Origin: Psilocybe cubensis
Lineage: Eukaryota
DNA: 64,000 nucleotides
Direction: 5' to 3'
Assembly (NCBI GenBank): GCA_017499595.2
Contig: JAFIQS020000014.1
Span: 62,001 to 126,000, forward strand
A program made the position numbers and the translations under genes. The notes under the pieces are model-generated. The model did not search any database, was not told the origin of the DNA, and was given only the letters and a program-made list of their open reading frames with translations. This document shows, one piece after another, positions 8,733 through 32,967 of the stretch; position 1 is the first letter of the stretch, and the number at the start of each line of letters is the position of its first letter.

Positions 8733-10261
8733 ATGTCGTTCTTGGTAAGAGATTACTCTGCTATTATAATTAACCTTTGTTCAATCCCTTTCAACAGAAA
8801 TTTATTAAACATCTTATCAATTATTTCGACGAAAATGAACCTTATACATCCAAGAGGAAGCGCTCTCCGAGTGAAGACTCAAGTGAAGAGACAAGAAATC
8901 CACCCCTCTATATTAAGGACTCAAAGGGTGACGCTCTTAATTGTTCTTAACTCATTGATCTATAACACTTCTATACAAACAAGGTCGGTTTGTTCGATAT
9001 ACACCCAGTTCCGAAGGCATGAAAAAGCCATTGGGTGAACCGAAGACCGAAGGTATGTAGTAATGCCTTTAAAACTGTGCATTAGATGCATTAACCATGT
9101 CATTAGTGGCTCGTGAGATTGTATCCAAGTCGTTTGTTCACCCGCTTCTCCGAAAGCAAACAATCAAAGATACAGGACCTATGATTGCGCCTACCAATGA
9201 CACGGAACAGCTTCCCATCAACTGGGATGGCTGGCCCGATGGATACATTGAATTAGACCTCTCCCATGCCGAGTTTTCGGCAACTAAACAGTTGATGTAT
9301 CATTGGGCGTACACCGTATCAGGAGGCTATAAATCCGGGCTCGAAGACCCTAATGCTGATCGTTGGGAGGACGGAAAGCAATCTACACGAAAATGCTGCG
9401 GAGTTATTCTGTGCACCAATAAAGATTGCACAATTGTTGTTCGTCCAAACACCAAGGAAACTGCGTTTAAACATCAGGTAAGTCGTGAATTAGATGTGTT
9501 CGCATTTCATGTCAATTTACCAAATTTTACCAAATTTTTAGCTCCAAAAAAAATGTGTATGTGGAGCGCGTTTGTACCACGAGAAATGCGAAATACGAGC
9601 AACTCTATGGAAGTGGGCTGGTGGTATCCATTATGTTCATCCTGGATTTCATTCCCACCAACGCCTTACACATATCCTTCACATTACTCAAGCAGAAGAA
9701 TCTCGCTTCATCGAGATTGTAACTGCAAACAAAGACATTGGTCCTCTGGGCTTAATCGTTGGAGTCCCGACAAAAAATGGCCCCGGTGAATCTGTCGCAG
9801 ACATTTCGGATGTTTATTTGAATCGTGATCGAGTTCAGAAGGATCGCCTCAAGATTTGTGGTCGCTCGTCTCAGACTGCTCAAGCACTCTTCCAGGCCTT
9901 TACCGAATTTTCCAAAAAGTTTCCCAACTTTGTAATCCACTCCGAGTTCATGAACGAAGTCGTCATATCTGTTCAAACAGATTTCATGCGCTCGCAACTT
10001 GTCAAATTGGATGCCCTTGACGAGGCAGTCAACGGTACAGTCAATGATGCTGCACACGGTTGGTGGAAGGAACGTCAATGGGTCTTGATTATCTCGTCAA
10101 CCTATTGTCCAGTGCTTCTATGCTGGGTACCCGGAGTCATGTCGTTCAGCAATGGGCAAAGCACTCAGCATTTCAAGTATCATTTCATTGCTGTCTTTCA
10201 AAGCATTATTCGCGAAGCAAAGGAGAAGGATATTCCTGTTTCGCACTCAATGTTTGCTGGA
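8733..10261 (+). CDS. GCM-domain MULE transposase, 5' exons
   Basis: Spliced MSFL|KFIKH...; GCM motifs INWDGWPDG, RKCCGVILCTNKDCTIVVRP, CVCGARLYHEKC...WKW...GFHSH; first candidate catalytic Asp in VNDAAHGW; ends MFAG|gtacgt at 10262. Confidence 0.85.
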
Positions 10262-10608
10262 GTACGTCACTGAGACATACTAGTATCGTTGGTTCCATCA
10301 GTAAATCCGGATTTTCGGAGGTAACTCAACGTATTGTCCTGCCAACCGGATGTAGCATCAAAGTGGGCTGTAGACAGTATAGCGTCATGTGTCATCGGCG
10401 GGATGCTCCGTTGAGCTCTGTAGCATTCCAACATTACTACTGCGAGCTTTGGATTTTCCTAGCTATCTCTATGTACGATTCCAGACTTAGGAGAGTTTGA
10501 TGTCCAATGTGATTGGTCTCAGTAAAGCTCTTCAATCATATCAAGCAATAAAATGTACATTTTTAAAGGCAATTAAGTGTCTATTTACAATGTAGTATCT
10601 TGACCCTA

Positions 10609-11159
10609 TTAATGATCCTGACATTCTCGTATGAGATCCTGCCCATTACTAAGAAAGTGTAGAAACAAAGTAGTTATCACTGTGACTCACCTCTACCGTT
10701 CGAATATGAATCTGGCCGTTGGCTATAATGGACATCCCTTGGGTCAATATGTGCTCGGGGCTGCCTGAGTCTGCATCCCGAAGTGTCTCCTCCTAGTTAT
10801 CTTAAGCAAGAGTATCAACTTGAAACTTGAAGAAACAGAAAACTCACGGCTCGTGCTTTGAGCCACTGGTCACCCTCGGTAATCTTGGCTTTAGCCAACG
10901 ATAGTAACCTTGGGTCCAGGGTGGTCCAGTTAATTTCGTTGAAAAGGGCCAGGATGGCCAGTATCAGCCTGTTCTCGGTCAAAAGGACCATTTTTTGGGT
11001 CTGCTCAACTAACTGAGCCATTTCCAAGTCGTATTGCTGTCTTTGAGAAGCAAGTGAGGCGGCCTCTGGGAAAGTTGTAGGATGTATTAGATCTGGGAAA
11101 GTAGGGGCCAATACTTCTGCTTCGATTCGTAAAATTTCCTCATAGCTGATGATTTGCAT
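10609..11159 (-). CDS. Small hypothetical helical protein, 3 exons (Plavaka cargo)
   Basis: MQIISYEEILRIEAE...KARA|EETLRDAD...RTVE|DLIRECQDH* with canonical GT-AG introns. Confidence 0.6.
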
Positions 11160-11403
11160 GGTGTGTGATACGCTCACTTTGTCGTAGTTGGAATTCAAGC
11201 TGAAAACAAACTTCGCGGGTATAAAAATTCTTCAGGGGTTCTGTATACGTAAAACAAAGTTCTATAGATTTTTCTAGGCTAGTCTAAGAAGATGCCTATC
11301 TAACTGAATGCGGGAGGAGCGCGCGTAGTGGTGGCAAGCAAAAGAGTGATTATTGAGAATGCGTACTACATGGCGCGGTCGTGAAAGTTGAAACTTATTG
11401 AGA

Positions 11404-13047
11404 CTATGTGGCAGTTGCAGCACTCTCACCAAAGGCGCATTTGCCGACCCAGAGTCGCCATTGCAAGGCTTGTGCGAGGGCACGTTCGCAGCGACCAATT
11501 TCACGAGGTGGGAGACCAGATAACCTTGCCCAAGCACGGTTAGAATAACACTTTTCTTGTGAAAATTTGGAGGCCAGGATGAGGGATGCCAGAAAGGCTC
11601 TACGGGGACACAGGAGGGGAGATGGCAAAGAAAGGGTGGTGGAAAGAGGAGCCGTTGAGACCTGCACATCTACGCTGGACAGAGAGTCTTGTGGATAGAT
11701 GCACGATTCAGCCAGATCTTGTGAACCAGAATCGGCAACACGGAATGTTTGCATAGAATTGTCAATGAAATTATTGATGATGTTGATCTTGCCGGAGTTC
11801 TCAAGAGCAGTAAGCTCAGCATCCATCGCCAGCTCTTCTGGGGTAGCTTTCTGAATACTGCTTTTGGGCTGAGCATAAGAGCGAATGCCGATGTTTTCCT
11901 CTTGCAAAATCTGTGGGACCTTGGGACGAATGGATTCTAGATAACATAGTGCTATCTGCAGTACGTTTTTAGATGTCCTTGAGTGGCGAAGGACTTTATA
12001 AACAAAAGACTTGAGGGGTAATATCTGATCGGATTTGGTGCCCGAGGCAAGCAAGAGGGTCGGGGAAGGGTTATGGCCGGATATGGAGGGATGACTGTTG
12101 TGTGGATGTATTGGATGTGTATGAGACGCTATGGATTGCAAATCGGAAGAGATCTGCTTGGAAGTTGGACGGGAATGAGTAGGAGGAAAAGAGCTACCCC
12201 CTACTTTGGCGGGGGGTAGGAACACGGAAGGAATATCCTGAGGGTGCCAGATCTCGGACAAGGTGCTGACAGCTTGATCTGCAATGGAATTTAAAAAATA
12301 AAGTGAGTATCTCCGGCAAGGTGGGCGCTAATTGAGGACAGGACGGACCGGCAAGCCTTGAAAAAAATTTTTGTTTAGAAGAAGAGGCGCTCTGGGAAGA
12401 ATCCTTTGGAATTTGCGCAGTGGTGGGTGGAATAGATGAGTGAGAACAACTTGATTCTGCAGAAATGAGACGGATGGAGGGGTATTCAGTAGGTAATGAT
12501 ACAGAGGCATGGCAGGTATGGATTGTGGGAGAGAGGCCAATGCTTTCCTCTTGCAAATTTTGGGAACCTTGGGACGAATGGCTTCGAGATAACATAGTGC
12601 TGTCTGCAGTATGTTTCCAGATGTCCTCAATCCTCAAAGGACTTCAGTGGGTAGAAATAGGGAGGGAATGTCTTGAGGGCGCCAGATCTCAGATAAGGTG
12701 CTGACAGCTTAATCTGCAATGGAATTGAAAAAATAAAGTGAGTATCTCCGGCAAGATGGGCGCTAATTGAGGACAGGACGGACCGACAAGACTGGAGGCG
12801 AATTTTTGTTTAGAGGAAGAGGCACTCTGGGAAGAATCCTTTGGAGTTTGGGCGGTGGTGAGCGGAAGATGAGCGAGAACGACTTGATTCTGCAGAGATG
12901 AGATGGATGGAGGGATATGCAGTAGGTGACGATGATACAGTGTGAGAAAGCGGGACTGGTGAGAAGCGGCTGTTGATATTGATCCGAGTCGTCTTTGTGT
13001 ACAACGAGGCCGGCGTGTTGGGTGATAATTTGAGTGGCAATGTGCAT
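11404..13047 (-). CDS. PHO80/Pcl-family cyclin-like protein (Plavaka cargo); 5' part partially duplicated and rearranged
   Basis: PLKSFVYKVLRHSRTSKNVLQIALCYL and SPLLCPRRAFLASLILASKFSQEKCYSNRAWARLSGLPPREIGRCERAL...LQWRLWV. Core ORF is 11404-12261; the true start is uncertain. Confidence 0.8.
12241..12930. repeat. Direct ~260-bp duplication (12241-12500 and 12676-12930) including an intron; 12540-12630 repeats 11890-11985
   Basis: Shared ...AAATAAAGTGAGTATCTCCGGCAAG...CTAATTGAGGACAGGACGGACCG; peptide ALCYLE.IRPKVP occurs twice. Confidence 0.88.
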
Positions 13048-13087
13048 TAGGGATTGAAAACTTTGTGGGTTTCCTGAGGTGGATATG

Positions 13088-16000
13088 TTATGATGACAGG
13101 GCCAAATAGAGTTCTTTGTCAAAATATTTGTTTAATCGGAACTCGGTGCTAGTGGAATGACTGTTATGTGTAGTAAGGCTTCGCCTTGCCTTCTCGCCCA
13201 TCTGAGGGACCAGATCAACCAGGGAGCGTATTTGATTCAATGGTAAAATTCCACCCATAATGGTGTTATCTGTACGTTGACTTCGTTTTAATTTATACAT
13301 GCCGGTTATTGGCTCTGGGTAAGGTCCACGGATCGCAGAACCTAGAGACTGTGGCTGATTTAAAACCTCAAAACGTTGGACGTATGCGAGAAATCTTCCA
13401 GTAATATCGGGAGACACAGTACTGGGTGTCTCTCCGACAATGCGAAAAATAATACGAATGTCGACGACAGAATGGCCTACAATATTGGCTGGTCAACGGG
13501 GTTCGGAAAAAAGTCACAAAGAAGTACTACCTTGAAGCCCGCTGCGAGGCCACTCCTCAGATTCATCCACGTTTATGATTGCTGAATCGAAGTATCCAAA
13601 AGGATGTTTGTTAGATGGCGGATATGCATTAAGTGTGACTGCCTCCAGGATCTCATGAGGGTATTGGTACGCAGTCGACTGTATACGGACCTTATGCCAT
13701 ACCTCAAGTTTTGAATACGGCAACGGACAACCGGGAGGAGAAACACGCCTGCCAGTTATCCCCTTGATGTGATAACCTCGAGAATTGGTCTGTCTCGGAT
13801 TTGATTCCTTATTGATGAGTGACACATAATCGGCAATTGCTGGTCGTAGGTCGGGAATTTTAAAAATGCTCGCAACCTCGTCGATATGCAATCTTTTGGA
13901 ACTAGCATCCCTAGATAAATGGGCAACAACGTTTTTGCTGCAAGAAAATGTTCTGTAGGGGACTGGGCCTTCCAATACGCCACGCTCATAGAGACTAGCT
14001 TTGTAGAAGTAATCCACAATGCGATTGGACTTTGCTGATTGAAAGGTTGTCATCGGCATGATTGTTGAAAGAAGTTCTGACGTTGTGTCCATCACAACCT
14101 CGCCGTTTTCCTCCCCCTCATCCCCCTCCTCCTGCTCCTCCTCATCCGTAATTGTTGCAGAGTGTATAGCCCGAAAATCAATCCTCATTTCTCGTATAGC
14201 TGTAAACAAATCGAAATTGCGCAATTTGTCACGACGATCAAGGTATCGACAAACTTGAGGCTCGTATCTTTGATTATTGCTGGAACTGGAAGGGGCTTTG
14301 ACCACCTCGATATGTGCATGCTCTGTCGTGTCTGCAGACCATTGGATTGCACATCCATTTAGTCTAATTGCGTGTACTACACTTTGCAAAAACTCGAGTT
14401 TTGGAATATAGAAATTATCGATTGGGTTGTTTTTTTTTACCTCGACGTGCTCCCGCGTCAAGGATGGCTTGTTTATTGGCATGGAAATCTTGCAGTGCCT
14501 GCTCAATTCTGAGACACATTGCCTCGGAGATTGTTTGAGATTGTGCGAGATACCGAAAGTCCATCAGAGACCGGATGGCTAAGATAAAGGGTGTACTGAC
14601 TGTGTCTGCAATGAGAGCAACAATGTATCGCTGAACGTCCCGATGTTCCCTACCGGTCACTTGTTTCAAGGAAGAAATCCCTTCCTTGAAGTGTCGGAAA
14701 CCAGTGCGGTGCTGTAAAATCGAAAATCGAAAATCCAATTCGGAACCTCCGACTGCAGCAATGCACCATTTTGCATCATGATCCCAGAACATCTTGTGCC
14801 AGTGATGAAGGGGTTCAGGCGTAAGGAATGCAGAAGGATCAGACAAGGGCCAATCTCTCCAAAACGGTAGGTGAACCCCATTGAGACGGTGCTTTTTGCT
14901 TTCTTTTAGATATGGTTCGAGATGATTAGGGGGCTTAACATTGTTGATGGCCATGATGGTGTTGATTGTATGATCTGCAGTTCGGGAAGGGTGGCGAAAG
15001 GAATCCCCAAACGTCTCGTATTGTGCCAACGTCACAGAGGATGTGGATCCTGCGACGCAAGCCGCCAGAGCAGATTCTGGAGTATCAACGATAAGGGCAG
15101 CAAGCGGTGTAAAGCAGAAACGATTATTCCCCAATGCATCTGCCATGGTGGTTCCCACCCTCGCAGTTTGTTTGACCGATTCTAGAGCAATGTCCATGCA
15201 CTGGTGATATAGCCGTGCTGCCATCATCCCATTCACAGCTTTGGAGCGATGAAGAAACTTTGGTATGGGAAGAAGAACAAAAAGAAGGAATAAATGATTT
15301 GACGATTTGTTTCTAACGTTCATCATTATGTTGGCAATGCTGATAAGGCCAGGGTAGGCGACACGGCCTCCGGTCATGTTGGAAATGTTGGTTTTATCCG
15401 TGGAAATAATAGGAGGTATAAGTGTTGCTCCTTTTGGGAGCTGGTCCTTGGGAACCTTGTTATACTGTCGTCAAACTTGGACAAAGGCATTGCTACTAAC
15501 CTGCATAAAATGCGCAATGTCACCGCTAAACCACTCAGTGTATACCCGCATCATCTCGTTGCACTTGTCGAAGAGCTTGAATGGGCTAAAGTGCATGCTA
15601 TCTTGGAGCAAGGGACTGATGAGAAGCGCCTTGATACATTCCAATCCATCGCGGTAAAAAAGCGTTAGCTGATTTTTGCTTGGTATTTCTGGTATGATCG
15701 TTTGACTCTTCCACTGCGGACCAGAGGGAAGGATCTCTGCCCGGTTGCGTAGATCTTTTGCCGACTTGTAGGACAAGTTGAGTTTTTTTATCTATACGGG
15801 ATCGACTCAGCTGAAATAAATAATGATGGGAATGTACGCTCAATTACCAGTTCAAGTTTCAAAAAATCATTCAGCATTCCTACGCTCATGTCAGAGCGAA
15901 GTAGGAACAGGGAGAGCTCCCATTCATCTTTCGAGGCAAAAGGATAGTACAAATTTTCCGCCCGCTGGGGTTCGAATTGATCCTGTTTGAGCTGATCCAT

Positions 16001-16393
16001 GAATGTAAGGCCTGTTCCAAATGCTCTTCCAGCCCCGTTATAATCCTCCTTCACGTACGGATAGTTGTATTTTGATGCCTTGGGGGGTGGGTCATCTTCC
16101 ATCTCTGATGACGCGCCAAGAAAATTGTCGATATAGTCCACTTCCATAAAATTACCAATTTCGGGAGAAGGGTCTCGAGATACGGGGGTTGCTGATCTAG
16201 ATGTAGAGCTTGAACGATTGGACTGAAAATGCATAACGTTCTCATATTGAAAACGACATGCCGATTTTGGTTGATTGATGTGATTTTGGACATCTGCATG
16301 CTTAGCGAATGGCTTGTTGCATCGAGGACAACGCACACAGATTTCCTGAGTTCTCTTGCCCTTGCCCTTTCCCATGTTGAAACAACGACTCAT
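13088..16393 (-). CDS. Plavaka transposase with N-terminal zinc finger; +1 frameshift in a homopolymer at 14430-14438
   Basis: YYPFASKDEWEL, AEILPSGPQWK, RVYTEWFSGD, GATLIPPIISTDKTNIS, TGGRVAYPGLISIANI, PEPLHHWHKMFWDHD, QVTGREHRDVQRY, IPKLEFLQS, QWSADTTEHAHI, FRLNKYFD. Confidence 0.93.
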
Positions 16394-16864
16394 ACAAAAG
16401 CGAAGATACGAAAAAAAAACTGATAATGTAATGTTCAGTAACGTGCAGTGGGTCTATAAATGTTATCTGATTATGTCTCCGTTAATACAAACAAATTTCA
16501 CATGGGTTAGTATTCAACCAATCCGTAGTACAATCCAAGGAGGGCTTCGGAAGAGCTTTACTGTATATACGCACCAGAACAAAGACACTAACACATTTTT
16601 TGAAGTGGGTGGAAGAAGCATCAACAAACGTAAGTTAGTTGATTTCATTGACCTTGATGATAAATTCAAACGCACAGCAGTTACAGTAAAGCCAGAAGCT
16701 TTCATCCCAGCGAGAATTTGCGTATTGGTCTGGCGATACGAGCAGCACACAACTACAGATAATAAAACAATCGTCATTATGTTACAGGACATACACGCCT
16801 TTCAGTACTAAATAAAACATGGCATGTATGTAAATCAAGATGTGTGTCAATGTGTTGTACAATA

Positions 16865-19800
16865 TCAAAGTCGCCGTCGTTTAGAAGGCGGAACAGACTC
16901 TGATTCTGATGAAGAGATAAGCATTTGCGACGTAAAGGCATAATCAAACACACGTACTCGGATTTGTGCTCTCCAGCTTGACTTTCATGCCATCCAGATA
17001 CAGTTTATCCCTCACACTCGTACCAAGTTCCAGAATCTCCTTGGGAGTTCCTAGTTTGTGACGTGGTTAGTGAATATCCAAAGGCAGACACTGGTCCACC
17101 TACTCAATTGCGTTGAGGAATCCGCACAGGCATCACAGTCAATGAGAGTGATTACGGGTAACTTGAGCATCTTTGGGACCGAGGAACGAGGAAGCTGGTC
17201 GATACTGCGACATATAACCTTGTTCAATTCTCCGCTGCAGACGCCCTGAAGCTGGACAAAAAGCAAACTGGTGTCGGTACAGCAAGGGGCACCACCAATG
17301 TTGTTATGTTTGGCTTCTGCGTCGTAGGCTAGAATCATACGGGCATAGCGGCAAAGTATCATTTCATGGAACTTTTCTGTCGCCATGATATTTTGTGCAT
17401 CCTTGTTTTTGTCCGTCTCAATCATGTAGTGGATGGACTTCGTGCGATGACATAGCCACTCTAGAATAGCCAAGGCTTCGCCACGGGCAAAGATGCACGC
17501 CTTGCGCTCTTCGTCGCTCAGGCTGTTGGTATCCCACCGCATCCATGCGTCTAACTGTGCCGAAGTCTTGGTGGAGAACATCTGATCGGGATTTCGATAG
17601 GTCTCGTAGTCGAGCGCATTTGCCAAGATCATGCACACGCACAGAGCTATCAAGCTCGAGTATCCGGACTGCGTACTGTAGAATGGGACATGGTACATTT
17701 CATAAAAATCTGAGAGAAAATAGAAGAAAAGAATCAGATATCTTGTAGGAAACGGTAAAAAACCTCATACCTTCTGGGTCGCTGTCACCTTCAACCAAAA
17801 CCTTGTAGAACCAATGTATGGTTTGCTGCAGGAAAAATCGGGACGTTGAATGATTCGTATTCGTTGCCCTGTATCCAGCGGTAAAACAGTGAATGATTCC
17901 TGTCAGGGTTTCTTCGAAGGAAGTGGAGGAGTAAAAATGTCCGCCACGGCAAACCACTGAGGAGATAGAATACGCCATATGTAGAGTATTCGGTCTCATG
18001 AAGCTGTTTTTCAAAGTAGCGTCAATATAATCAAATGGGTAGGACATTCAAAAATCACATACAGTTCTGACTGGTTATCGAGAACAATCGCCTCGTAAAT
18101 CCAGTCTTGGTGGTGCGTTTCCCCGTAATCCAGCTTGTCTCCCAGAAATACACGGCGGTCAGAAGAAAGGTCAACATCCAACCGTCTGGGATACATGATA
18201 ATCCACAGCTTCAGTCCATGAAGAGGTTGGATGAAGGAACAGAAACCATTGGCATCGATATGGATATCTGAAAATGCCCCCTCTGTAGCTACGAGTCCCC
18301 ATGACATATCACCAAATGGGACGGGGGTACTATACTTCCAGCTACCAGATGTAGCCCGAAGAGCAGCCGCCTCAGTACTCAAGTCAAAAGAGTGAGCGCC
18401 TGCATGAGGTAAAGGGATGTCGAGGGCATTGAGGATCTTTCCTCTTTTGCCTTTCATCCTCGCTGCTTCCATGACCTGAGAGAGGGACCCACGCTTAATC
18501 CTCTCGATGGGGTTAGACGACATGGTCGACATATCTGTTACGGCCATTAGCATGAGACGCAGAAAGAAAAATCAAAACATCGAAGAGGAAACACACCTTG
18601 GATTGACCTGGTGCTCGTCATATCACCCATATGGCGACGTACCTGGCTGTAGAACTCGTCGGAGCAAGTTGAAATAGACTCCTCTTGAGAAGGAGACATA
18701 AGGACGACGTTCCTTTCAGAGAAAGACTCCATCAGATACATGGATTTCGTGGTGCTGCGGTCAAATACCGCAAAACATGATTCTTCGGGACGTGCTATGT
18801 GCAATGGAACTCCATCGACGTAGTCACTCTCGACCAATTCCAGAACCCTTTCAACACGATCCACGTCGGCTTGACTCTTGTTTGGAGAATAAATAAATGA
18901 CGAAAAAATCAATATCGAGAATGACTTACATGGGCAACAACGCAGAAACTTTTAAGTTGGCCACGACCGTTGTAGGTGGACCAAACTTTGGTGCCATACA
19001 CCTTCTCCGGAGTGCTGACGACATCAAGGGTGGTGTTGCTGTCGTACAGATCGACATCAATACACAGGTCGTCGTCCGAATCAAATGTGTCGGTAGCCTG
19101 CGTCGGCTTGCGTTTGGGAGGCCGCTTGGAAAGGCCCTGCCGGCCCTTCCCTTTCCCTTTCTGAGAGGAGTCAGCCGTGGTGTTTTTGCTCCTGTTTATC
19201 TGGGAAACAGGAGGAATCCTCAAAATAAGAGGAGCAGGAGGTGCGTTCTCCCCCTCCTTTTCGCCTTGGCTGTCTTCCAATGTATTCCTCTCCATGTCTG
19301 AGGAATCATTGTTTTGCTCTGGGCCTACCCCCTCTCCATCGACCGACATTCTGTCCTCCTGGACTGGTGGAACATCCCCTTGCCCCTGCTTCTCGGTCTC
19401 ATTGTCCGACGAACTGTCGTCTGGCCTTTCCTCCTCACCATCTTCTGACATTCGGTTCTCCTCGTCGGGTCGTTCTCCGTCTTGCCCCTGCTTTTCGCCC
19501 TCGTGAACTTCCGACATACGATTTGCCTCGTCAGAAGACCCTTCAGCTCCTTGTCCAGCCCCGCCGTCTCCCAAATTTTCTGGACCATTGGTATGTGGAC
19601 CATCCTCCATTTGATGGTCGACATCAGCTTGCTCCGGATCGACGTTCATCTCACAATCCCCTGCAGTTGAGGGCCCAGTATTCTCAGTCTGAAGTAGACC
19701 AGATCCAATATCATCACTCCGCGGCAAACCAGGTTGCTCGTCCGTGGGCACATCCTTGCCAGCCACCGAAGATGTGTCTTCCGGAGGCTGTATATCTGAG

Positions 19801-21428
19801 GTAGGGACCGTATTGTCCCCGTTCTCCTGTTGACCCATGCTGACATCCTTGCCAGCCACTGAAGACGTGTCTTCCGGAGGCTGTATATTTGAGGTAGGGA
19901 CCGTATTGTCCCCGTTCTCCCGTTGACCCATGCTGACCATTTCCGTCGTGTCCACTTCGTGATCATCGTCACCCTCCGCGTCTGCGTCGGACCCTTCACA
20001 GGTGGTTTTTTCACCATGATGGGAAACGGTCTGAAGTTGAGCTGTTTTAAACGGATTTAAATCATGTAATTGACGCAGACTTTGCTTATAACTTACCGTG
20101 TGGTTCAGTGCTGCGCCTTGCTAGGTTAGAATTTGCTGTAACCTCGGCGCTGCTCGTTGACGCTGGCCAATTATTAGTTTAAATTGTTATTTTGTTACAG
20201 TACGTAGAACACACATATGAAAAAGTGAAACGCGGGATCTTGTGCAATTACCCGCTCGCATTCCATCCAGCAGTCTGAGATAACAAGTTTATATAAGGCT
20301 GACTGGATGTCGCAATTTTGCGCTGCAATGATTTTCCAAATTTCCATCTCCACTTCACGCAGAACACGGGGGCGACAATTACCGAGCGCTTTTGAGGCCT
20401 AAAGGAGTGCGTTAATCCAAGTTAAACTGGGAGGATGTGGATACACCTACTTTAAGCAGCTGCTCCCGGTCACATTTCTTAGAATACCAAGATTTATTCA
20501 CAAAAAGAAGGATGGGGGATATGAAAAGGGCGACATGCAGAGGAATTTTTAAATGAGATGGCGTGACCTCTGAGAGGAACAACGCAGCATCAGGATGGCC
20601 GCTTGCACTAGGGTATGTTGAGCAGATTGTATCAATGAATAGAGGAAAGAAAACTTACTAGAGATTTGCAAGAGTAGCCGTGTCCGTTGGAATGTCTGGT
20701 AGAACGTGTTCATCGTCCTTCATACCGCGCATTCCTGACAAGATTTGGTAGTGTAGCGAGGCACAGTACACATTCCCGATTATTTTCCCCACAACACCCT
20801 TGAAGTGGTTACGCGCCAGACAGAGTAATAGCGTTGATTCCGAGGGCCCGCCCTGGGTGAAAGCGGATGACGGCGTGTCACTGATAGAAGGGGTGTTGAT
20901 GTTTCTGTGCGACTTAGAGTCGGCTCTGAGGATGCGCTTCCTGGCAGAGCAGAGCATTGCCGGCCAGTCCTTCAAGTCATCTACAAGCTACAATAATTGT
21001 TTGAAAATTAAGAATTAACATTGAGTGACTTCATGATCGCATACCTTGAACCGTGAAAATATTTCCTTAGTTCTTGTGCTGGCCTGTATTTCATTCAGGG
21101 GCACGGTCACCGGCAACGATGGTCCAAAGGCTGCTGGCCACAACGCTACGAGATCGAGTAGACGGTATGCTGCAAATAAGCTACCCGCCTGCTCCCATGT
21201 AGCCGAGGTTACGCAGGGTGTCTCTACGATGCTGTTCTGAAGGGCAGCCAAGCTTTGCCTATACTTGATGGCCGCTCGCATGCTCGATGATGAAACATCG
21301 TAATTCAAAAAGGTGAAGTCCTCATATCGTCGGAGGAAATCCACCATCCTCTACAGAAACTTGATATTAGTACCATAAATGGCAATCCAATTAAGACCTA
21401 CGCGGAGTGGGTGCGACTCTGGCAACAT
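16865..21428 (-). CDS. Large multi-exon JmjC-domain (2OG-Fe(II) oxygenase, demethylase-like) protein with long acidic linker (Plavaka cargo)
   Basis: WGLVATEGAFSDIHIDANGFCSF...GLKLWII...FMRPNTLHMAYS...CRGGHFY gives an HxD...H metal triad. Predicted start MLPESHPLR|RMVDFL and end SKRRRL*. Joining of all exons into one gene is inferred. Confidence 0.8.
19751..19936. repeat. 93-bp in-frame tandem duplication inside the JmjC gene
   Basis: MGQRENGDNTVPTSNIQPPEDTSSVAGKDVS occurs twice with few substitutions. Confidence 0.92.
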
Positions 21429-21753
21429 GTTTTCCAGAGTCTGACGAACGACCTGCGTTTCGAAGGGAAACGCCAGAATTTCTTCAGCTTGGAGTCGGGC
21501 AACGGGGGAAATCTTCTGGGCTTGCACTACAAAACTTCAACGTCTCACCCTGCATTCTATTTCTTTGGGTACTTACTTTTTTTTGTGTGTTTTTTTCTGG
21601 TGTCTCAAATTTTCAACTAGATGAATTTTAACTGAACGAAAACTATTATAGAGTGTCTAGAGTATTGTCTATGTCTATTTTATTAGAATGTATGTTAAAT
21701 CTATGGGGAGGGGTACTACGCTATGACGAACGGAAAGAAAAACAATCAAGTTG

Positions 21754-21930
21754 GAAACACGCTATTTCCGGAGCGATTCTTTAGGGTAGGTTTCCCGTCC
21801 TGAAGTCACGAGTTGGTTAAAAAAACGCCCCCTTACATCAGGCTGATGTAAGGGGGCGTTTTTTTAACCAACTCGTGACTTCAGGACGGGAAACCTACCC
21901 TAAAGAATCGCTCCGGAAATAGCGTGTTTC
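21754..21930. repeat. Perfect palindrome: 88-bp arms, 1-nt loop at 21842; imperfect extension 21718-21967
   Basis: GAAACACGCTATTTCCGG...CCTTACATCAG-G-CTGATGTAAGG...CCGGAAATAGCGTGTTTC; outer ACGCTATGACGAACGGAAAGA pairs with TCTTTCCGTTCATCATAGCGT. Confidence 0.97.
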
Positions 21931-22070
21931 TCACCATATGTTTTCTCTTTCCGTTCATCATAGCGTCTTATCATAGTAATAGGTTGTGTAGTATCTAAAA
22001 ATAAATTATCACAAGTTAAGATGATAAATTAAGTGAGATGAACATCGATTAACAGTCTTTAAGACCCACA

Positions 22071-24430
22071 ATGTCTAGTTATAAACGCAGACGACTTGAC
22101 AGCCTAGGCAACCGCACAGTGTGTACTAATCCAACCCTCCATCTAATCACTAACTTCAGGGAAATTTAATTATGATCTCAAAAAATCAGGACATTAATCC
22201 CTTCATAGACATTGAAGCAGCGGTTTCCGATGATGATGAAAGTTCGGAAGAGCTTGATTATGAAGGGGGCCAACTACGTATGTTCCAATAATTTACATAT
22301 ATTCTGCTCAATATGTACTGATGCTAATGGGTTCTGACATACAGTGAATGATAACGATGAATACTCTGAGGATGAGGAACGTGTTGCACACTCTCGGCTA
22401 TATCATGCCATGCAAAATACAGATAACGCTGATGAATGGAGCGATTTGTTGCCCATGCTTCTGCCTTCACGCATGAAAATTCGTCCTGACAATGATATAG
22501 AGCCATCTAGTTCACGAGAACTTATACAGAAATATGGCAATCCCCAACCAGGAGGACTTGGTGATAATAATTATATGCCTTCCGCGACTGATATCATGTA
22601 TGAAATAGGTTGCAAGGTACGCAAAAATAATATAAGTCTTCAGTCAGCATTTATTGATCACCTTACGAGTGATAGGTTGGACGCGAAAAGGCCGTCGCTT
22701 TCAAAATTATGCAGATGTCAACGAACCCTACATTTCCCATCATCCTTGCCCGGTCTGTCTTCGCTCAATCCTCAATTCCTGGGAGAATCTACGTCGAGGC
22801 GCCATCAATGCAACATGCGCATACGTTAGCCTGCCTCGTTAGAGAGCTTAATCCGACACATTTAGTTAGGCTATCCTCGGAGAGATGTATGGAGATCCTA
22901 TCTCATCCCCCACCCTCACGCCCTGAAGACCAATCGTGGGTCAAGGTTGCTGGAAAGCGTAAGGCTTGGACGACCTACGCAAATGCTACCGGCCTTGTGT
23001 TCACATTCCAGGGTCGGAAAAGTGTTGTTCTTATCCCCAGACCTCCGGACAACATCAAGAAATCGCACCTCGACAGGATATTCCAGGATGGATTTATTAT
23101 CACGGATTTCGACGCCATCGATCTCAAATATCTTTCCAATGTCCTCCCAACATCGTCCGAGTTGGAGCAATTTCGCGAGTGTCCATTTGTAACGACGGAG
23201 ACCTTAGCGCAAGCCTCGAAAGCCATCTCCATGACTCGACTGAAACGATATGATCGAGTCAAAATTATTGGTGGAGAATACTTAGGTCTTTTTGGAACGG
23301 TCAAGAGTGTTTCTGACGCTGAGGTGGAAGTGCACATCCCCTCCCAAGGTATAACACAAGCAGTTGCACTACACGATCTACGTGCAGCTTTCCAGATAGG
23401 CGATAGTGTTGAAGTCGTTGAAGGGGATCACAAAGATCTCCATGGATGGGTGTCAGACTTTGATGGAAGATCTGTTTGTATTATCGCCCCAGAGCACGAA
23501 CGCGAAGTAGGTGAACTGTCATTCTCTTTGTCTCAGTAGTGTTCAACACATTTTTCAGGTCATTGTGCCCATCCACACAGTCATATTCTACGTCCCCCCT
23601 GCCCATGCTACTCTTCGCCCGCGAAAGCGTCATTCGTCAAAGCTTGGAGAAAGAGACCACAACGACGTCTATATAGGTTTGAGTGTCATCGTTGTCGGGA
23701 ATAATACATTCAAGGGGTACTATGGCATCGTTAAAAGCACTACCCCCGACGGCTTTGCAGACGTTGAGCTGGAAGCTCGTAACCAGAGGGTGGAACGTAT
23801 TAAAATATCACATTTAATTATACAGTATGTGGTTTCACTTGATTCGTTGACTGTCAGGTGCTTACTGACATTGTTTCAAGCAACCGAGAACATATAAATT
23901 CCGCTCAAGACCCCGGGCCTTCTGGTGGAGCAACTCCAATGCCGTCCACAGTAGCAAGTTTTCTGTCTCCTGCATGGAATCCGTATTCAGCAATACCTGT
24001 ACACTCGGCGGTGGAAATCGCAGAACTACCCTCAACCGTCGCTCACTGGCTAGATACGAAATACGATAAGCTGAAAGGATTACGATTAAAAGTCGTAGAC
24101 AAATCCAAGGGCGACCATCAAGTGGCGATGGAACTTCTCAGCCTTACCGACGATACTGCCCACCTAGCATTACTGGGACGTACACTGACATTACCGAAAT
24201 CAGTGTTGTTTCCAATTCATCCTGTAAAAAAGGACGACTTCGTTACACCGCTTGAGGGCGATTCAATGGGGATTATATTCAGGATACGATCAATAGACAA
24301 GGATATTTGCGTTGTACATAAATATCCCGTTACTCGTATGAAACGCGGTGATACATTCCCAACTTTTCCGACAACATCTTTGATTCAAATCTTCCCCCCG
24401 TCCCGTGGTGTCAAAGTTGTAAATATGTAG
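22071..24430 (+). CDS. Divergent SPT5-like transcription elongation factor (Plavaka cargo)
   Basis: Acidic N-terminus NPFIDIEAAVSDDDE; NGN-like YEIGCK|VGREKAVAFKIM...SVFAQSSIPGRIYVEA; KOW motifs DRVKIIGGEYLGLFGTV, GDSVEVVEGDHKDLHGWV, VIVVGNNTFKGYYGIVK; residual CTR-like GGATPM...SPAWNPYS. Confidence 0.85.
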
Positions 24431-24597
24431 GGTGCAGCATTACTTGTATTTCGAACACGGACTTGTAGACATATACGGGTTTTATGTCATTCTATTTAAG
24501 TGTATTTCGGCAATCAACAGTGCTAATGGTTCGTAATGTGTTGATCGTCTTGAACTTAAGCCACCACCACCACACCAAATTGTTGCCTATCTTTATC

Positions 24598-24953
24598 ATG
24601 AACCATTCCAATAGCAACAACGCTTCGCAACCTCAAAGTCGCCGCCTCCCTAGCATACCCGAAGAGGCAGAGTTCTTCGTTTTAGGTCTATTTTCATGTT
24701 TTAATCCACCTTCCTCTAGAATCAAGGCATAGAGGCCGTTAAAAAGGCTCTTGACCAATTTCAACTCACTGAACAGAGGTGTCTAGAAGTTCAGGCAGAG
24801 CTACGTTGTTATATGGACGACATTATGCGAGCATATAAATCCAATGAAGATCTTCTGTTTGAAACCCAGCTCGAAATCGCCCGTCTACGGGTATCCCTCA
24901 TTAGTCGGGGAATACCTATTCTAATGCACCCTCAGGATAATCCGCGATCATGA
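24598..24953 (+). CDS. Small hypothetical coiled-coil protein, 2 exons (Plavaka cargo)
   Basis: MNHSNSNNASQPQSRRLPSIPEEAEFFVL|...EAVKKALDQFQLTEQRCLEVQAEL...ETQLEIARLRVSL...PRS*. Confidence 0.5.
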
Positions 24954-25224
24954 TAGGTGCAGTCTTTTCCCCTCTGAGATGTAACTTTACTTAACTCTAA
25001 GTAGGACATGGAATCTGACTATAATGTATATGTGATATATTGTAGTAGATAGGGGTACTGTTTCAGTACCTGTAATTTCTATATGGCACGATATATTTTT
25101 GACTGATGTCCGTCGCCTTAAATTTTGAAAAGAGGCTAATTTCGCATACCTCCGGATCGTAGCTTGACATAATTCACCACCCCTTATCTCTATTTCTGCA
25201 TTACAACCGTCAAACCAGCCCAAT

Positions 25225-27966
25225 ATGCCACCTAAAGGATCCAAAAAGAAAAAGGCGGTTGTCAATGCCACGGTTGAAGGTATCATCTATATATCCTCAT
25301 TACATCCGCATACTTAATGTTTTATCCATCTAGGACAAGAGGTTGAACAGGGTCCGAGCTCCGTGGCAGAAAACGAGCCACCTCAGGCTCCTGAAGCAGG
25401 TCTGTACTAGCATTTTCTTTGTTGAGATTCACTGAACTCTTTATTAAAAAGACCCCAATGGCCGTCCTATCCGAAGCACCCGTGGTCTTGGTGGAGTAAA
25501 TGCTCGGCAGGAGAAAACATCTAACATCATTTTTATTGACTTCGAGAAGGCTGGGAAGAGGAAGTCAAGGGCCGCCAATGTGGATACTAGCGCCATGCCT
25601 GAAAATGAGATGGCGCCTCCCTTGAAGAAACCTCGCAATGGGGTGAGTCTACTGTTCTAATCTTAAATTTGCTATCTTCCAAGCACGTCTAGGTTACCGT
25701 TGTGTCGCATGTAGGTCCCCCTATTCAAATGCAACCAAGGCCAACGCCTTCAGTTGCTCCTTGGGATGTCCAACAAGTCCAACCAAGCCCACGACAATCT
25801 CAGGGTGCCCCCCCTCCTGTCCAGATCCAACGTGCAGCTCAGAGAAATCAGGAGCACTCAGAGCTTGATCATGCTGTCCAAAGACCCACTGCCCCCATCC
25901 AGCGCCCCGCTGCTCCGGTACAACAGCCAGCACATCCTGTCCCGCGCCCCGTACAACATGCAGCACATCCTGTCCCGCGCCCTGTACAACACGCAGCAAA
26001 TCCTGTTCAGCGTTACGCTGCCCCTGCGGCAGAGAATTCTGTCCAATACTACGATGCCCCCGTACAACAACCAGTGCATCCTGTAACACAACATGCCCCC
26101 ATACAACAGCCAGTGCATCCAGCAGCCTATAACGCCCACCAAGAGGCTAGCATCAGCCATCAAGACGAGGAGGAGCAACAAGATTACGAAGGCATAGAGC
26201 AGGAGGAAGATGAGGAGGAGGAAGAGGGGGATAGTGACGGTGAAAGGCGATCTGAGGAAGCATCAGGGGACGAATGCATGCAAGGAATTGATGAAGAGAA
26301 TATTGGGGATGAAGAAGCTCTCCAATATGTCGACGGTGATGAAGGTTACGACGACGCGGGTCAAGATGATGAAGAGCCTGCTGCCCAGCGTTGGTTTAAC
26401 TCCACCTTTATGTCGTGTTTGCTTACCACCTATGTTTGACAGTGGTTGATGAAGTTTCCGATGATGAAGAGGAGAGGAGAGCAAGGGCATTGCTCCGCCA
26501 GCCTTCCCCCCATGTAATCATTTCTCTGCTGTATTTAATGTCTAGCTAATGTATTATTGATATAGGTTGTGGAAGTAGAGGATGTTCTTCAAGAACACCG
26601 TCGTCGTAATCGGGCGAACAAGCCACCTCGCCCTGAGGCATTGCGCAAGGCGGCTGTTTCGCAAGGAGCCGTATCCCAAGGTTTGACAAGGGAGAACAAC
26701 GAAGCATCTGACGATGATGAGGTGCTTGGTGAGGCACACATCGCTCATAAGAAGTCCAGTACTTCTTCTGCTAGGGAAGTATCCAAGCATTCAGTTGCAT
26801 CCTTTACTGGTTACTGGAAAGATGTGCTCAAAATTGCACGCAAACTGATGTGCCTGTATGTAGTAGAGGAGGTCCCCTTTCCCACTCGGGAAAATCACTT
26901 ATTAGTCGCCGATGGATGTGTGAAGATGGCAGTAACCGTGTTTGAAAGAATGAACACGGATAAAGTGTTGCCTGATAGTAAGTTCTGTCTTCTGTGATTT
27001 TAGTTAATTGGTTTACATAACTTTGCAGAGAAAAAAACGCTCCTAGACAGGAATACCGCCGTAACGGTATATTTTTAGCGTGTTCTTTTAAGGATATCGT
27101 ACTAACGTGTCTGTTCTCATTAGGCATTTGTCTACGCGTCAACCTTCCGGGGAAGACTGAAGACGATGATCAGACCCCTGGTCAAAAATGCGTATGGCCT
27201 CGAAGTCCCGTCGGAGGTCATCGCCGCGAACCCCAATATGTTTGAAAATCAGATGGGGGAGATCGAATACATCAAGGACAGGGTAGCATATTGGCTACTC
27301 AATGGTAAATACCACCGGGGTGTTGCCAAAACCCGAGTGAGTTCGCCGTCCATTTTACCTGGCTTACCACTCATTGATTTGTTTCCAGTATCACGATGTC
27401 CCATTTGGACATCCTTTTGTGAAGAAGATCTGTCTGGACTTCTTCTACCATCCTACAAAAGGGGTTGCAGTCCCCATCAAAGGTCTGGAGACAAAGACGG
27501 ATTTCTTCAAGACATCGCTTCCCCACAAAGCATTTGCGCTTGTGGCCAGTTGTGTAGTTCTGATTTCTCTCCTGCTATTGGCACTGCCTTGCTAACAAGC
27601 ATTTTGCTGTAGATCCACAACTGTCTTGAGGAGTGGAGGGATGGGATTGACCCTGCAAGAGGTGGTCCGTGTTCGGGTATTGAATTCAAGGGAGAGGAGT
27701 ACTCCCTGAGGTATGATGCCTGCATGTTGGTTGCAGCAGAGGCAGAGAAGGATACCTTGAACCAAGGTCCTCGCTTGGCTCGCTTATGTAGGGAAGTGGC
27801 TGAGGAAGGATGGTGTGTATCTTTTTTTATTCATTTCTTTCTTTGCATCATTTAGATCTCCATAATCAGTGCTATTATGAGGCCTACGAAGAACCCCCCC
27901 AACCCTTATAGGATGACTCTCCATTCTATCCCACAGGAGGAACTAGATTACGGTCCAGAAGGGTAG
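25225..27966 (+). CDS. DUF6532-like protein with basic, P/Q-rich and acidic N-terminal regions (Plavaka cargo)
   Basis: ASTFRGRLKTMIRPLVKNAYGL, PFGHPFVKKICLDFFY, LPHKAFALVASC|IHNCLEEWRDG, EFKGEEYSLRY; many short introns; internal 33-bp QHAAHPVPRPV repeats. Confidence 0.75.
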
Positions 27967-28234
27967 TTGGGTGAATGAGCGGGGCAGCTGCCGGGTGTGG
28001 ATTAGAAGATACCATATTTAGATCGTCACGTATTAATAGTTATGCATCTACTAATAGAAACATGTTTGGTCCGATCCAAACATAGATTATCTATTTTTAA
28101 AATTGCCCATTTTAGTCAAAAATGGTTCGGTTTTCAGTGTGATATTGGCACTTGCAGGAATAGCCACACAACACTATACAAATGAAAGTGGATACTATAT
28201 ATGCCTTTGTACCTATTTGCAGTGTGTTATGATG

Positions 28235-28350
28235 TGCTACAAATCTGTGGTAGCATGCTACAAATCTGTGGTAGCATGCTACAAATCTGTGGTAGCATGC
28301 TACAAATCTGTGGTAGCATGCTACAAATCTGTGGTAGTATGCTACAATTT
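28235..28350. repeat. 21-bp tandem array TGCTACAAATCTGTGGTAGCA (5 copies plus partial), subterminal in the Plavaka element
   Basis: Seen directly; unit junctions form the palindrome GTAGCATGCTAC. Confidence 0.95.
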
Positions 28351-28598
28351 GTATGTCAGTTGTATACAGAGGGGTATGGACCATGGTAAGCATGCTACAC
28401 GCCGCTACACAGCACTCGCGTTACAATACAGATCACTACAGAGTACCATGTCACGTTGGTACCAAGCTACAGGTACATCAGTGTGTGTTACCCAAATGGG
28501 ACCGTTACTATGGGCACTACAGAATTACGTATCACTACGGATCATTACCTACTTGGCCCCGGTATTGCTGATGTCTATTTGATGATGTATTCTCCTAG

Positions 28599-31500
28599 GT
28601 TATGGACTTTAGCGAAGCCGAAAGAGAAGGCTTTATTTTGGGGTATATCGAGTTCTGGCAGCAAGAACCAACCAACACCATTTCACATGATGACCTCCGA
28701 ATTGCGGCTACGCGTCTTTTAAGTGGATGTTTAGAGCATTATCGAAGGGGTGTTACGCGTGTTAGCAGGATTGGCGGCGTTGTTCCTGTTGAAAAAGCTG
28801 AGGATTTCAAGAAACGTGCATTAGAGCTTGTTGACCTACCTAACGCTGTAGAGTTTCAGTTGCAAGCAGCAAACCTTGTACGCGATTTTCCAAAGCTGAA
28901 TAGCTGGATGGCGTGGTGGACACGCCCTTCTCACGCCTCTATGCTTTTTTATTCCCAACGGAAAATGGACATAGATGTATGGAAGTCGATTCCGAAGACT
29001 ACAAATGCCGAGGAAGCAATGCACTGGAAAATGTACTGTGCTGCTGGACGGGATCATGACTTTATGGCTGGAATGTATGCTCTTCATGCTGTTGCGCAAT
29101 ATTTTGAGCGAGTATATAATGCAGCACTTGGTGAGTAATTGTATTTTCTGACAGAGAACTATATTTACATTTTAATTACAGAGGGAAAACCTATACGGTA
29201 CGGCAAGGCCGAACCGTGGAAATCAACAAAAGAGAAGCTTGGTCGTACTAAGCCTACTCGCGCACCCGACGCTGCTACCCAAAAGCGGAAACACAATGAC
29301 GGTCGCCCGCCAGATACCGTTAAAGAACTCCTTGGACAAAAGCACAAAAAACAAAAGCTTATTCAATCAGATAACTTGCAAGAAGAAGCGGCCCTCACAG
29401 TTTTAGAAGATGGCAACATTAACCGCTATTCAAAGACGTTAGACGACACTCCAGCAATAGTTCGGGAGCCCTCCCAACATCAGGTTGTCGCTTCTAGTCC
29501 ACGTACTTCTGCACATCCCAACCGCTCGCCAATTGCATCTTTTCCATGGAAAGATAACTCATGCTGGCTGGATGTGGCTCTTACTCTTCTCGGCGCTGTA
29601 AATGCATCGTTTGATTCGTATTTTTACAGCATATGTGGACCAAATTTACCGGACGACTCAATGCTTCGAATACTTGGACAAACACTACAAGAGTGCCAAA
29701 ATCTTAGACGAGGACGGATATCACCAAAATCACTTCTTATTGGGCTAGGAAAGCAGCGAGACCTCTTCCGCAGGTCACTTAAAAGCCAGAAATTCATTAC
29801 AAAGTTGACTTCATTTGATTCAGTTTTCGTAAGTTCACGTTTTCTTGTGTATATATTATGGGCGCTTAAATTTGTTAGGGTTGGTTCAACGATGTTGTTC
29901 AAAGGGAACAACACTCACAGTGGTACAGATCAGCGGCATCTCTCCAGATATTGACCACATCGATCCGCTTCTGTACAGGATCCGAGGCTATTGGGGGCCC
30001 TCATGTAGAACTGTCAACAAAGCCACGGAGTGCGCGTTTTTTGCAGCTAATGCCTCGGGACTATGACCAGTATGGCGGAGATTTGGAAAGATATTTTTCC
30101 AATTATATCTCGCTGGATCGCTGTCCAACACCTTCCTACATCTCTTTTGACTCCATTGATTGTGCACCTGAGCGGGTCAAATGCTGGAGAACAAAAGATG
30201 GTGTCTGTCTTTGCCCAGGAGAACGAGAAGACATACGGGACTTGGTTATATCCCTTCCTTTTATGCTATACTTTGAGCTGGCAAACGATACTGGCGAACC
30301 TAGTCTGTCTTCTTGGGATCTTTCACCAATTCTAAAGGCTGCATCTGGCGCTCCAGACGATTTTTCAGATCTTGTATACTATCTGGTCGGGCTAGTGCTT
30401 ATTGATTCCTCTGGAAGTCACTTTAGTGCCAGATTTACGCAGAATGGATTGGTCTACACCTACGACGGACTTGAAAATGGCGGAAACTGTGTTGTGGAGG
30501 AGAATGCCTCAATCGAAACACACCTTTCGGGAAAAGCGCCTATACTTCCTGATGGTTGTTGTGTTCATGCTATTATCTATGCGCACGAGGGAAAAGAGTC
30601 TGCACAAGATGCATTCTTTAATACACGACACAAATTGATCTCCGAAAGATTCAATATTCGATTCATATGCTCGATTGTTGGATTATACAGCCCACAGCAG
30701 CTTACTTATACGTCACCCGACTATGAACAGATGGATCCTTCTAAACAAGATTGGATCAGCAATAGAAAACTCGCGGAATCAACAGAAGAATATCTTACCC
30801 GCTCTAAACGCAGAGCAGTTGCTGTAAACAAGAAGACCACACCAGCAGAAAAAATAGAGCTGGATCCCGAATCCGAAGAAGAGACCTTTAACATCTCTAA
30901 AAGTCTTCTTACTCCAAGCAGTCCAGCACGCGGATCGACCCTAGTACTTGGCTCCACTTTGGGTAGTCCAGCCGAGTCAAAGTCATCACATTCGCGGGAA
31001 TCTTCACCTTGGTCTAGCTTCTCAATAAACTGCCGATGCGGTTTGATTGGAGATGGAAACAAATACTATCTTGATGACGAACATGGCGCGGCTGTCCAGT
31101 GTGACTGGTGCAAGGACTGGTCGCACATAGCATGTCAGCGAAATGGACGGGCAAGCAATCTGGGAATCACAGACGACTTTATTTGTGACTCGTGTGATGT
31201 TAGAAATCATATTATACCACGTTCGAGTGCAGAACGGTAAGCATGTCATACTCTCTGTTGTATTTACCAAGTTGCTTATTTTCCCTAGTATGCAATGTGC
31301 AGAACGTATTGGAGACAGAATATGTCTTGCAGACCGTCTCAAGTAAGTTAAATACATTATACTACATACCAATACTTAAAAATTTTAACAGAGAAGGTCG
31401 AGGTGCCCTTTGCCTTCATGGTGAATTCTGGTACCCAGTTCGCATCATCCAACGAGTTTCAAATGGGTGGCGCGTGCGGTGGTGGAGAGATAATCAATAT

Positions 31501-32421
31501 GCCACGATGCCTCCTGGAGTGGGTTCCCAAATTACATCCATAGCTCCAGAAGATCATGTCGTGGATTCTCTATGGATGAATGCAGAAGGACGAAGACAAA
31601 TACGGGTGAGCTCTACGGATTCTATTGCCTTTTCTTGACTAAAAAGACAACCAATATAGCTTGGAAAATGGATTCACGCACATGAAGTAAAAGATAATGA
31701 CGAGATATTATCTGATCCAAGTTCTATCCCCTTCACTGAAGACATTGACCGAATCCTCATGCCGCATATCAAAGTTCTGAAGGCGCTTCTCAACAACAAT
31801 CGCAAATTCCTTGCATCAAAAACGATTCCTGCAAAGAAGTGGCATGACGAGCAGAAGAAAATGAAGAACTCAAAGTCCTTCCTGAAATCTGGTGTTATTC
31901 CATTTACTGGTCAGTTAACAATTATTGAACGCGCTCAGATTTCGAACTGGTTTGAATGCAAAATCGCCAACAACGACATTAAAATGCGAATTAAATGGGT
32001 ATCCTTCCCGCCTCTCGCCCATGCTTTTACTCTTTATATTGCTCATCACCTCAAGCAAAATCCAAGGTTCACAGACCTTTTGGATGACCGTCTTATTGAA
32101 GAAGCATGGTCAGCTCAATGCTGGGAACGACCTACCTCCAAGAACGAAATTGATGTTGATAGGGACTGCCTACAGCTTTTTGAAGAAGAAATTTTTGAAG
32201 TTTCGGCGCGTGCCGGAGTTGCAGGACACTGCCAGTGGGGACTCGATGTGGGACCACATCAAGATGGGTGGAACCCATACGGTGGACTTCCAGATTACTT
32301 CAACTTTGGTGATAGAGAAGGGGATGACAGTGAACTCGAGGTATGTGGTTTAATATTTTATTCATACAAGGATACTTGCTCACCAATGGCAAACTAGCCC
32401 GGGCCTCAATTCTTAGCTTAA
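28599..32421 (+). CDS. GCM-domain MULE transposase, 3' exons: DDE core, USP-like peptidase, PHD finger, Tudor-like barrel
   Basis: VMDFSEAE (D), GCLEHY (CxxH), PKTTNAEEAMH (E); WKDNSCWLD Cys box; YYLVGLV...SHFSARF...YTYDG His box; CRCG...QCDWCKDWSHIAC...FICDSC PHD; FWYPVRII...WRVRWW; QWGLDVGPHQDGWNPY. Confidence 0.85.
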
Positions 32422-32624: not shown

Positions 32625-32765
32625 CCACGCACGCACATGCACGTCCCTCAGCCACTTCCGCACTTCCCTCAGCCACTTCCGCACTGCCCTCAGCCAATCG
32701 CGCACGTCGCACTGCCCGCACTTCCCGCACTGCACTTCCCTTGCACTTCCCTCGCTTCCCCTGCA
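32625..32765 (-). repeat. Right subterminal GCACTTCCC-type repeats of the giant MULE
   Basis: Repeated CCCTCAGCCACTTCCGCAC and GCACTTCCC units adjoining the right TIR. Confidence 0.85.
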
Positions 32766-32967
32766 AGGTAAATTTCTTGTGCCCATCCATACCCACCTAG
32801 ATTAGTGGAATTACACTTGAATCATATATTTGACGCATGTTTCGACAAATTATTGTGATTGCAGAACTCATGCTTACACCTAGTGGGAGTACTCAGCTTG
32901 CGTACAAAGTACTAGACGGTGATCTCAGTAAAACTCACTCTGTATATTGGTGCATGTATGCGGGGTA

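Follow-up and report, generated by a model that had tools for sequence, protein, structure and literature searches.

Long palindromes are fragile, according to the accessible part of PMC7999016, and the persistence of one in about 10–12 copies of a mushroom transposon therefore needs explaining. It lies in the window, the whole 64,000-nt stretch of Psilocybe cubensis DNA analysed here, and a preliminary description had proposed that it was a symmetric bidirectional promoter, a cruciform origin or a hairpin resolution site of an extrachromosomal form. The question is which of these roles, if any, accounts for its symmetry.

The palindrome and its host element

The anatomy of the locus mostly agreed with that description. 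The perfect 177-bp core has two arms that pair at all 88 positions with one G between them, and the ~35 bp of diverged inverted flank noted on each side correspond to a pair of partly complementary outer arms (Table 1). Within the 64-kb window the runner-up perfect arm is 12 bp (loops of up to 11 nt), and the folding score of the palindrome (z = -28.9) was matched by 0 of 200 shuffles. Each arm bears one outward-pointing CCCTAA box, CTTACATCA occurs just twice in the window, and the CATCAG hexamer of the central dyad is also the hexamer at the termini of the element. The sequences flanking the palindrome on its left and right differ, a second copy of the arm was not found elsewhere in the window, and reading of the arm ends revealed no clear TSD.

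The palindrome coincides with a strand switch, as all genes of the element to its left are on the minus strand and all those to its right on the plus strand. The element fits PlavakaB, judging from its transposase domain, CATCA..TGATG termini and 2-bp TSD. PlavakaB elements of the CMCT clade are described as having 5'-CATCA..TGATG-3' termini and a 2- or 3-bp TSD (Kojima 2025, PMC12730594), and the accessible part of that paper also matches our element in Plavaka transposase, agaric host and size, which is within its listed range. The TSD, TC (10294–10295 and 28574–28575), lies in an intron of an outer gene, and excising the element in silico restored a 57-nt GT..AG intron in that gene. Alternative ends, CACTGA or TGT..ACA, were dropped for the CATCAG termini and TC duplication. 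The sole PsiCub family in the accessible part of PMC12730594 starts with a different sequence from our element. The main text of that paper contained no match for SPT5, JmjC, KOW or hairpin and one for 'palindrom', on another matter; its supplementary sequences, incomplete in the form available, may hold an internal palindrome. The closest named transposases were P. cubensis proteins (98% and 93%), and one such transposase cluster had 39 members, on several contigs among the 15 listed.

Two passenger genes diverge from the palindrome. The SPT5-like gene starts at about 22071, as first described, and from there has the same N-terminus as protein P0001. The JmjC-like gene had no Pfam match; its assignment comes from Atlas features (0.96 to a JmjC cluster) and a weak PHF2 match (E 0.4), and nearly all matches in searches with its protein were from the same species. 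Its start, previously placed at 21428, is most likely nearer the palindrome, upstream of a predicted intron that splits the ATG. With this predicted start at 21577, the two genes are divergent and 494 nt apart (<1 kb). SPT5-like and JmjC-like accessions are adjacent on two contigs of a named P. cubensis record (KAH9484623-27; KAH9480968 and -70). A Pfam scan of 48 ORFs found no resolvase or initiator gene, several of the ORFs having no match of any kind. Elsewhere in the element, part of the cyclin-like region has a tandem duplicate (11887–12940, 81–88% identity), and a 21-bp tandem array of 5.4 copies near the right end (28235–28347), with a short palindrome in every unit, probably represents subterminal repeats.

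Table 1 Features of the palindrome and its host element, in window coordinates; the start and first intron of the JmjC-like gene are predicted.
Feature	Position	Strand	Remarks
Whole PlavakaB element, 18,278 bp	10296–28573		termini CATCAG..CTGATG
Cyclin-like passenger ORF	11404–12327	-	Pfam E 0.003, below cut-off
Plavaka transposase with DUF6830	13088–16393	-	Pfam PF18759 E 2.7e-64 (also 1.1e-16), PF20722
JmjC-like gene, multi-exon	17051–21577	-	ends approximate
Predicted first intron of JmjC-like gene, 50 nt, GT..AG	21576–21527	-	start codon split A|TG; likewise split in loci L031 and L022
AT-rich tract, 74%	21600–21700		between left arm and JmjC-like start
Left outer arm	21718–21753		27/36 paired with right outer arm
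Perfect palindrome, 177 bp	21754–21930		88 complementary pairs
Left perfect arm, 88 bp	21754–21841		complementarity
CCCTAA box facing JmjC-like gene	21781–21786	-	209 nt 5' of predicted start
Central dyad, CTTACATCAG and mirror	21832–21852
1-nt loop (G)	21842		19 nt at equivalent place in sister copies
Right perfect arm, 88 bp	21843–21930		complementarity
CCCTAA box facing SPT5-like gene	21898–21903	+	173 nt 5' of ATG
Right outer arm with pyrimidine-rich tract	21931–21966		27/36 paired with left outer arm
AT-rich tract, 72%	21970–22070		between right arm and SPT5-like start
SPT5-like gene, NGN and KOW	22071–24430	+	Pfam PF03439, PF23284, PF23290
DUF6532-like passenger gene	25225–27966	+	ends by eye; Pfam E 7e-5, just below cut-off

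Family copies and centre variants in raw reads

Short reads from one run (X16) and three contig sets (X10, X11 and X12) covered positions 21000–22700. In total, 6,121 raw reads gave unbroken cover, 4,774 of them at least 99% alike, and nine runs contained 93–95% of the words of 20800–23600. Independent reads joined both arms to both flanks, with the flanks co-occurring at family depth; the palindrome is supported by reads and not created by assembly. From eight variants typical of one copy, we estimated ~10–12 copies of the element in X16 (10.2–12.5). Depth was about equal on the two sides (~460–560 on the left, 500–585 on the right) and fell from ~500 to 165 at the centre, a drop that would be expected from clipping and hairpin bias. 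Hairpins can provoke linked sequencing errors, and 11 A>C positions among the variants, six of them listed at 21671–21703, are likely to be errors of this kind. Across 21542–21786, 38–48 reads, approximately one copy's worth, came from a diverged relative and continued into tandem CTTTAGGG-like words.

The reads also revealed that 177 bp is a centre-shortened variant and not the usual form of the family. A centre 18 nt longer was present in X16 reads, in one X10 contig and in one X12 contig, X11 having no contig there; the 177-bp centre was not certain in any run examined. Loose ends at 21841 in X16 (71 reads before, 53 behind) led into the longer centre and not into foreign flanks in the nine of 58 loose-end rows listed. 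The longer centre holds TGATGCG, a word found immediately internal to the 10-mer in two related loci described below (L028 and L030) as well, and we infer from this that the long-centre form is older and that the short centre of the window probably arose by central deletion, with an error in the consensus at the hairpin tip as a possible alternative.

Several read variants bear on how the arms change. One mirrored pair of substitutions, T21787C (26/218 reads) and A21897G (22/267 reads), was found unphased, and a model in which one arm alone had changed and reads were misplaced gave P values of 6e-9 to 7e-4, although library fold-back could mimic such changes. C21769T (67/287 reads) had no mirror among the 40 of 104 variant rows listed. 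The loop base was C in left-side loose ends and G in right-side ones, with both in the joint letters, which hints at loop inversion. A deletion joint from 21841 to 21993, in 5 + 6 reads, removes the right arm, and in X16 17 molecules ended at 21838 and 17 began at 21846, 4 nt either side of the centre.

An upstream cassette and mirrored arms in distant relatives

To place the palindrome among its relatives, we scanned metagenomes with one SPT5-like peptide pattern and obtained 31 loci. A tree of 21 of these, the window and 13 database proteins contained three starred clades, with the window as a separate long branch at 31–35% identity (full-length exons); the remaining loci were placed by upstream DNA identity. 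Two broad alignments contained no stretch of sufficient conservation to serve as a search pattern. Among viral contigs the transposase query gave no loci and none of 117 matches to the SPT5-like patterns was confirmed, and none of 13 was confirmed in prokaryote genome contigs. One viral-contig locus (L001), the sole match to a pattern of the palindrome centre, was taken as chance.

Upstream of transposon-borne SPT5-like genes we found a recurrent order of elements: CATCA/TGATG words come first, followed by the CCCTAA box and a pyrimidine tract, after which an AT-rich stretch leads to the start codon. The box was on the sense strand in 19 of the 20 loci with enough upstream DNA, 11 of the 31 being too short, and the one miss (L032) was the weakest match. 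Measured from the NGN exon, its position ranged from -635 to -732 in the 19 loci and was -781 in the window, against a chance expectation of 0.02–0.08 per 180 nt; its distance to the ATG was 168–268 nt in eight genes and both window genes, and in an alignment of 12 sequences it fell in invariant columns. As the box was first noticed in the window and clade I, clades II and III, which are neighbours on the tree, provide its real test. CATCA/TGATG words also occur in the clade II cassette, where the adjacent transposase-like ORFs have no Plavaka match. Long inverted repeats 6–9 kb apart surround the SPT5-like gene region in clade II (L010, 6132–6674 and 15578–16155; L027, 6665–6810 and 13263–13412), and the interval in L010 includes such non-Plavaka transposase-like ORFs.

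In the window lineage and in one distant clade, clade I, this cassette is doubled back to back, with the second copy facing a JmjC-like gene. Loci L031 and L022 have 158-nt arms that are 97–98% complementary, plus outer pieces of 43 and 22 nt. The inner arm ends in clade I carry CTTACATCAG, identical to the central 10-mer of the window, and six of the 31 loci, all of clade I, have CTTACATCA there. The clade I spacer measures 60 nt as far as a near partial copy and ~940 nt as far as the full arm, and so mirror symmetry is common to the window and clade I while the spacerless tip is not. L031 alone among the 31 loci encodes, in divergent orientation, a homologue of the N-terminal part of the JmjC-like protein (28%, E 4e-14); the association with a JmjC-like partner is confined to two lineages and one contig (L031). 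On both sides the arms of L031 take in the predicted leader exon with its splice donor, and the start codon is split A|TG as in the window; nothing else in the anatomy speaks as strongly for the arms being promoters. Repeated GATGAATAAGC words occur in the clade I spacer, taking the form of a 57-bp tandem in L028 (1–126) and, in L031 (3300–3412 and 4165–4269), of a core duplicated on either side of an insertion.

Symmetry was less widespread than the cassette. In a long-arm test of 20 sequences, four were untestable and, of the other 16, five were significant (the window and four clade I loci), two were weak (3/100 shuffles) and nine had no long arms; the sequence of L023 begins inside the spacer. 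Because nine of 16 testable sequences are without them, symmetry is not required for the SPT5-like gene. A mirror-box scan, with a matrix that included forward boxes of these same clades, gave hits equalled by 0/200 shuffles in the window, L022, L029, L031 and L017/L018, the last being a local dyad 20 nt away. The hits in L009/L010 were equalled by 8–9/200 shuffles, and nothing was found in L002, L008, L014, L015, L019, L023, L027 or L030. When aligned whole, the 124-nt window arm matched clade I arms no better than shuffles (z 0.1–2.0); only against L002/L003 was z higher (3.1 and 3.9). What the window has in common with clade I arms is limited to motifs, and these were chosen after inspection of the alignment. 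Differences among the arms of clade I copies were one-sided, and fast homogenisation was therefore not seen there. The arm homogenisation proposed earlier is backed by one mirrored pair in the raw reads.

A probable mirrored promoter and competing readings

We think it probable, from comparison of the sequences, that the palindrome is a mirror-duplicated bidirectional promoter cassette, mirrored to drive the JmjC-like gene too, homogenised by template switching and unstable at its centre. The shared mirrored layout with a differing spacer favours this reading over a cruciform origin or resolution site. Of the roles first proposed, the symmetric bidirectional promoter is thus the one that gains comparative support, from the box, the mirrored arms, the JmjC-like homologue and the split start codon; similarity along the whole arm is not significant between lineages, and two clades have no long arms. 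The cassette itself presumably acts as a promoter. It would first have been copied by fold-back at the short central dyad; template switching would then keep the inner arms identical, its effect fading outward, and a central deletion would have turned a 195-bp form into the 177-bp form. A Myb/telobox-type factor may read CCCTAA, and a bZIP factor may read TTACATCA. Selection would act on two equal promoters, for joint expression of two chromatin-type passengers, and not on the spacerless tip.

The AACCCT-box bidirectional promoters of fission-yeast histone gene pairs, to which Ams2 and the Myb-family protein Teb1 bind (PMC4614360), are a precedent: there too a box of telomere-like sequence sits in a short promoter that separates two divergent genes. 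They share one box, however, whereas here two mirrored cassettes lie in a long palindrome within a transposon, and the binding factor is putative. Template switching reportedly makes the arms of inverted repeats alike and flips their spacers (PMC8604942), consistent with the perfect inner arms, decayed outer arms, mirrored substitutions and hints of both loop bases seen here, although those cases are short repeats and here the arms are 88–158 nt in a layout common to distant elements. The palindrome region of maize Sirevirus LTRs (PMC4728375) is likewise a palindrome-rich, fast-changing cis-regulatory part of a transposon, but in a retroelement, in one direction and with siRNA evidence, none of which we saw here. 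The sources available yielded nothing on a mirrored promoter or an SPT5/JmjC pair in Plavaka elements, and the cross-lineage cassette and the mirrored layout appear to be what is new here.

The same symmetry could be a neutral by-product, with the cassette promoting the SPT5-like gene only, a fold-back accident having mirrored it and template switching perfecting the arms to no benefit. Selection is not required for template switching (PMC8604942, in its accessible part), long arms are absent from two of four lineages, and the right-arm deletion indicates an unstable centre. We nevertheless consider this account unlikely, as the layout, the inner 10-mer, the divergent partner and the split start codon are common to two lineages only ~33% identical in protein, and as it leaves the persistence of the palindrome in its many copies to be explained. 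Improbable to a greater degree is that the centre is a cut or resolution site, at which a transposase or structure-specific nuclease would cleave the CATCAG..CTGATG pseudo-ends to give 11.5-kb and 6.7-kb modules or hairpin-ended or telomere-seeded linear forms, or that it is a cruciform origin. What keeps this reading in play is the identity of the innermost hexamers with the element termini (counting both strands, the 64 kb contain this hexamer 51 times), together with the 17 + 17 pile-up of molecule ends. TTAGGG is the fungal telomere repeat, and on both arms its 5'-to-3' direction is inward, the orientation expected of a telomere seed, but with a single telomere-like unit per arm. The spacer, moreover, is 1 nt in the window, 19 nt in sister copies and 60–940 nt in the distant clade, leaving no fixed symmetric centre among relatives; depth is about equal on the two sides, the loose ends listed are the longer centre, and the CATCA/TGATG words of clade II stand beside non-Plavaka transposase-like ORFs. 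Given this variability of the centre, the proposals of a cruciform origin and of a hairpin resolution site are not supported. We give similarly low odds to the central dyad being a working pair of internal transposon ends or a programmed break, where the transposase binds or cuts and releases either half, each with CATCAG..CTGATG at its borders, or ends with telomere-oriented TTAGGG, as extrachromosomal forms. If true, this would couple transposase level to the mirrored promoter of two chromatin passengers and give a cut-and-paste transposon with a conserved central site of resolution and control; present evidence points to no new system of replication or resolution.

A perfect stem is a Dicer substrate, and read-through or overlapping transcripts could fold into an 88–97-bp stem to yield small RNAs that regulate the element. 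We hold this source of hairpin RNA to be about as improbable as a central cut: the boxes point outward, so transcripts should begin beyond the arms, the long arms of clade I are ~940 nt apart, and none of 12 generic hairpin matches in Rfam reached the gathering score, against a precedent in the accessible account of maize Sirevirus LTR palindromes (PMC4728375). Least probable in our view is that the palindrome arose as a fold-back during assembly, or that it is a small foldback element which this copy alone acquired by insertion, a reading that the data already largely refute. An error in the tip consensus could account for the 177-bp centre, though for that detail alone, while the continuous cover, the words shared by nine runs, the differing flanks and the presence of a homologous structure in distant elements all speak against an artefact or an independent MITE, and the palindrome belongs to the sister elements as well. 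Foldback and MITE elements and hairpin-telomere resolution sites do have long inverted arms, as here; the window palindrome differs from the former in having neither its own TSD nor dispersal, and from the latter in its unfixed centre and in there being no resolvase gene seen.

Should the mirrored promoter be borne out, a family of large mushroom transposons would co-express an SPT5-like elongation factor and a JmjC-like oxygenase from one mirrored promoter, tolerating a fragile palindrome to do so. The CCCTAA box and CATCA dyad would then form a defined cis-element for asking how such elements escape silencing. The family is also a natural multi-copy system in which a single long-read assembly would allow arm homogenisation, centre deletion and loop inversion to be counted.

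Other features were noted around the element and among its relatives. The outer gene (9073–10273 and 28599–32397), which by its motifs we take to be Mutator-like, reads in frame across the element (FAG|VMDF) and has a PHD finger; TGCACTTCCC arrays at 7817–8522 and 32639–32784, partly inverted, may mark its ends. A 938-bp inverted repeat, 85% alike, links 47917–48854 with 54572–55500, 5.7 kb apart. An Agrocybe chaxingu gene model (P0006) joins an SPT5-like part with a domain resembling TET/JBP (a Pfam match below cut-off, E 6e-7), a fusion that would tie the SPT5-like passenger to TET-bearing elements.
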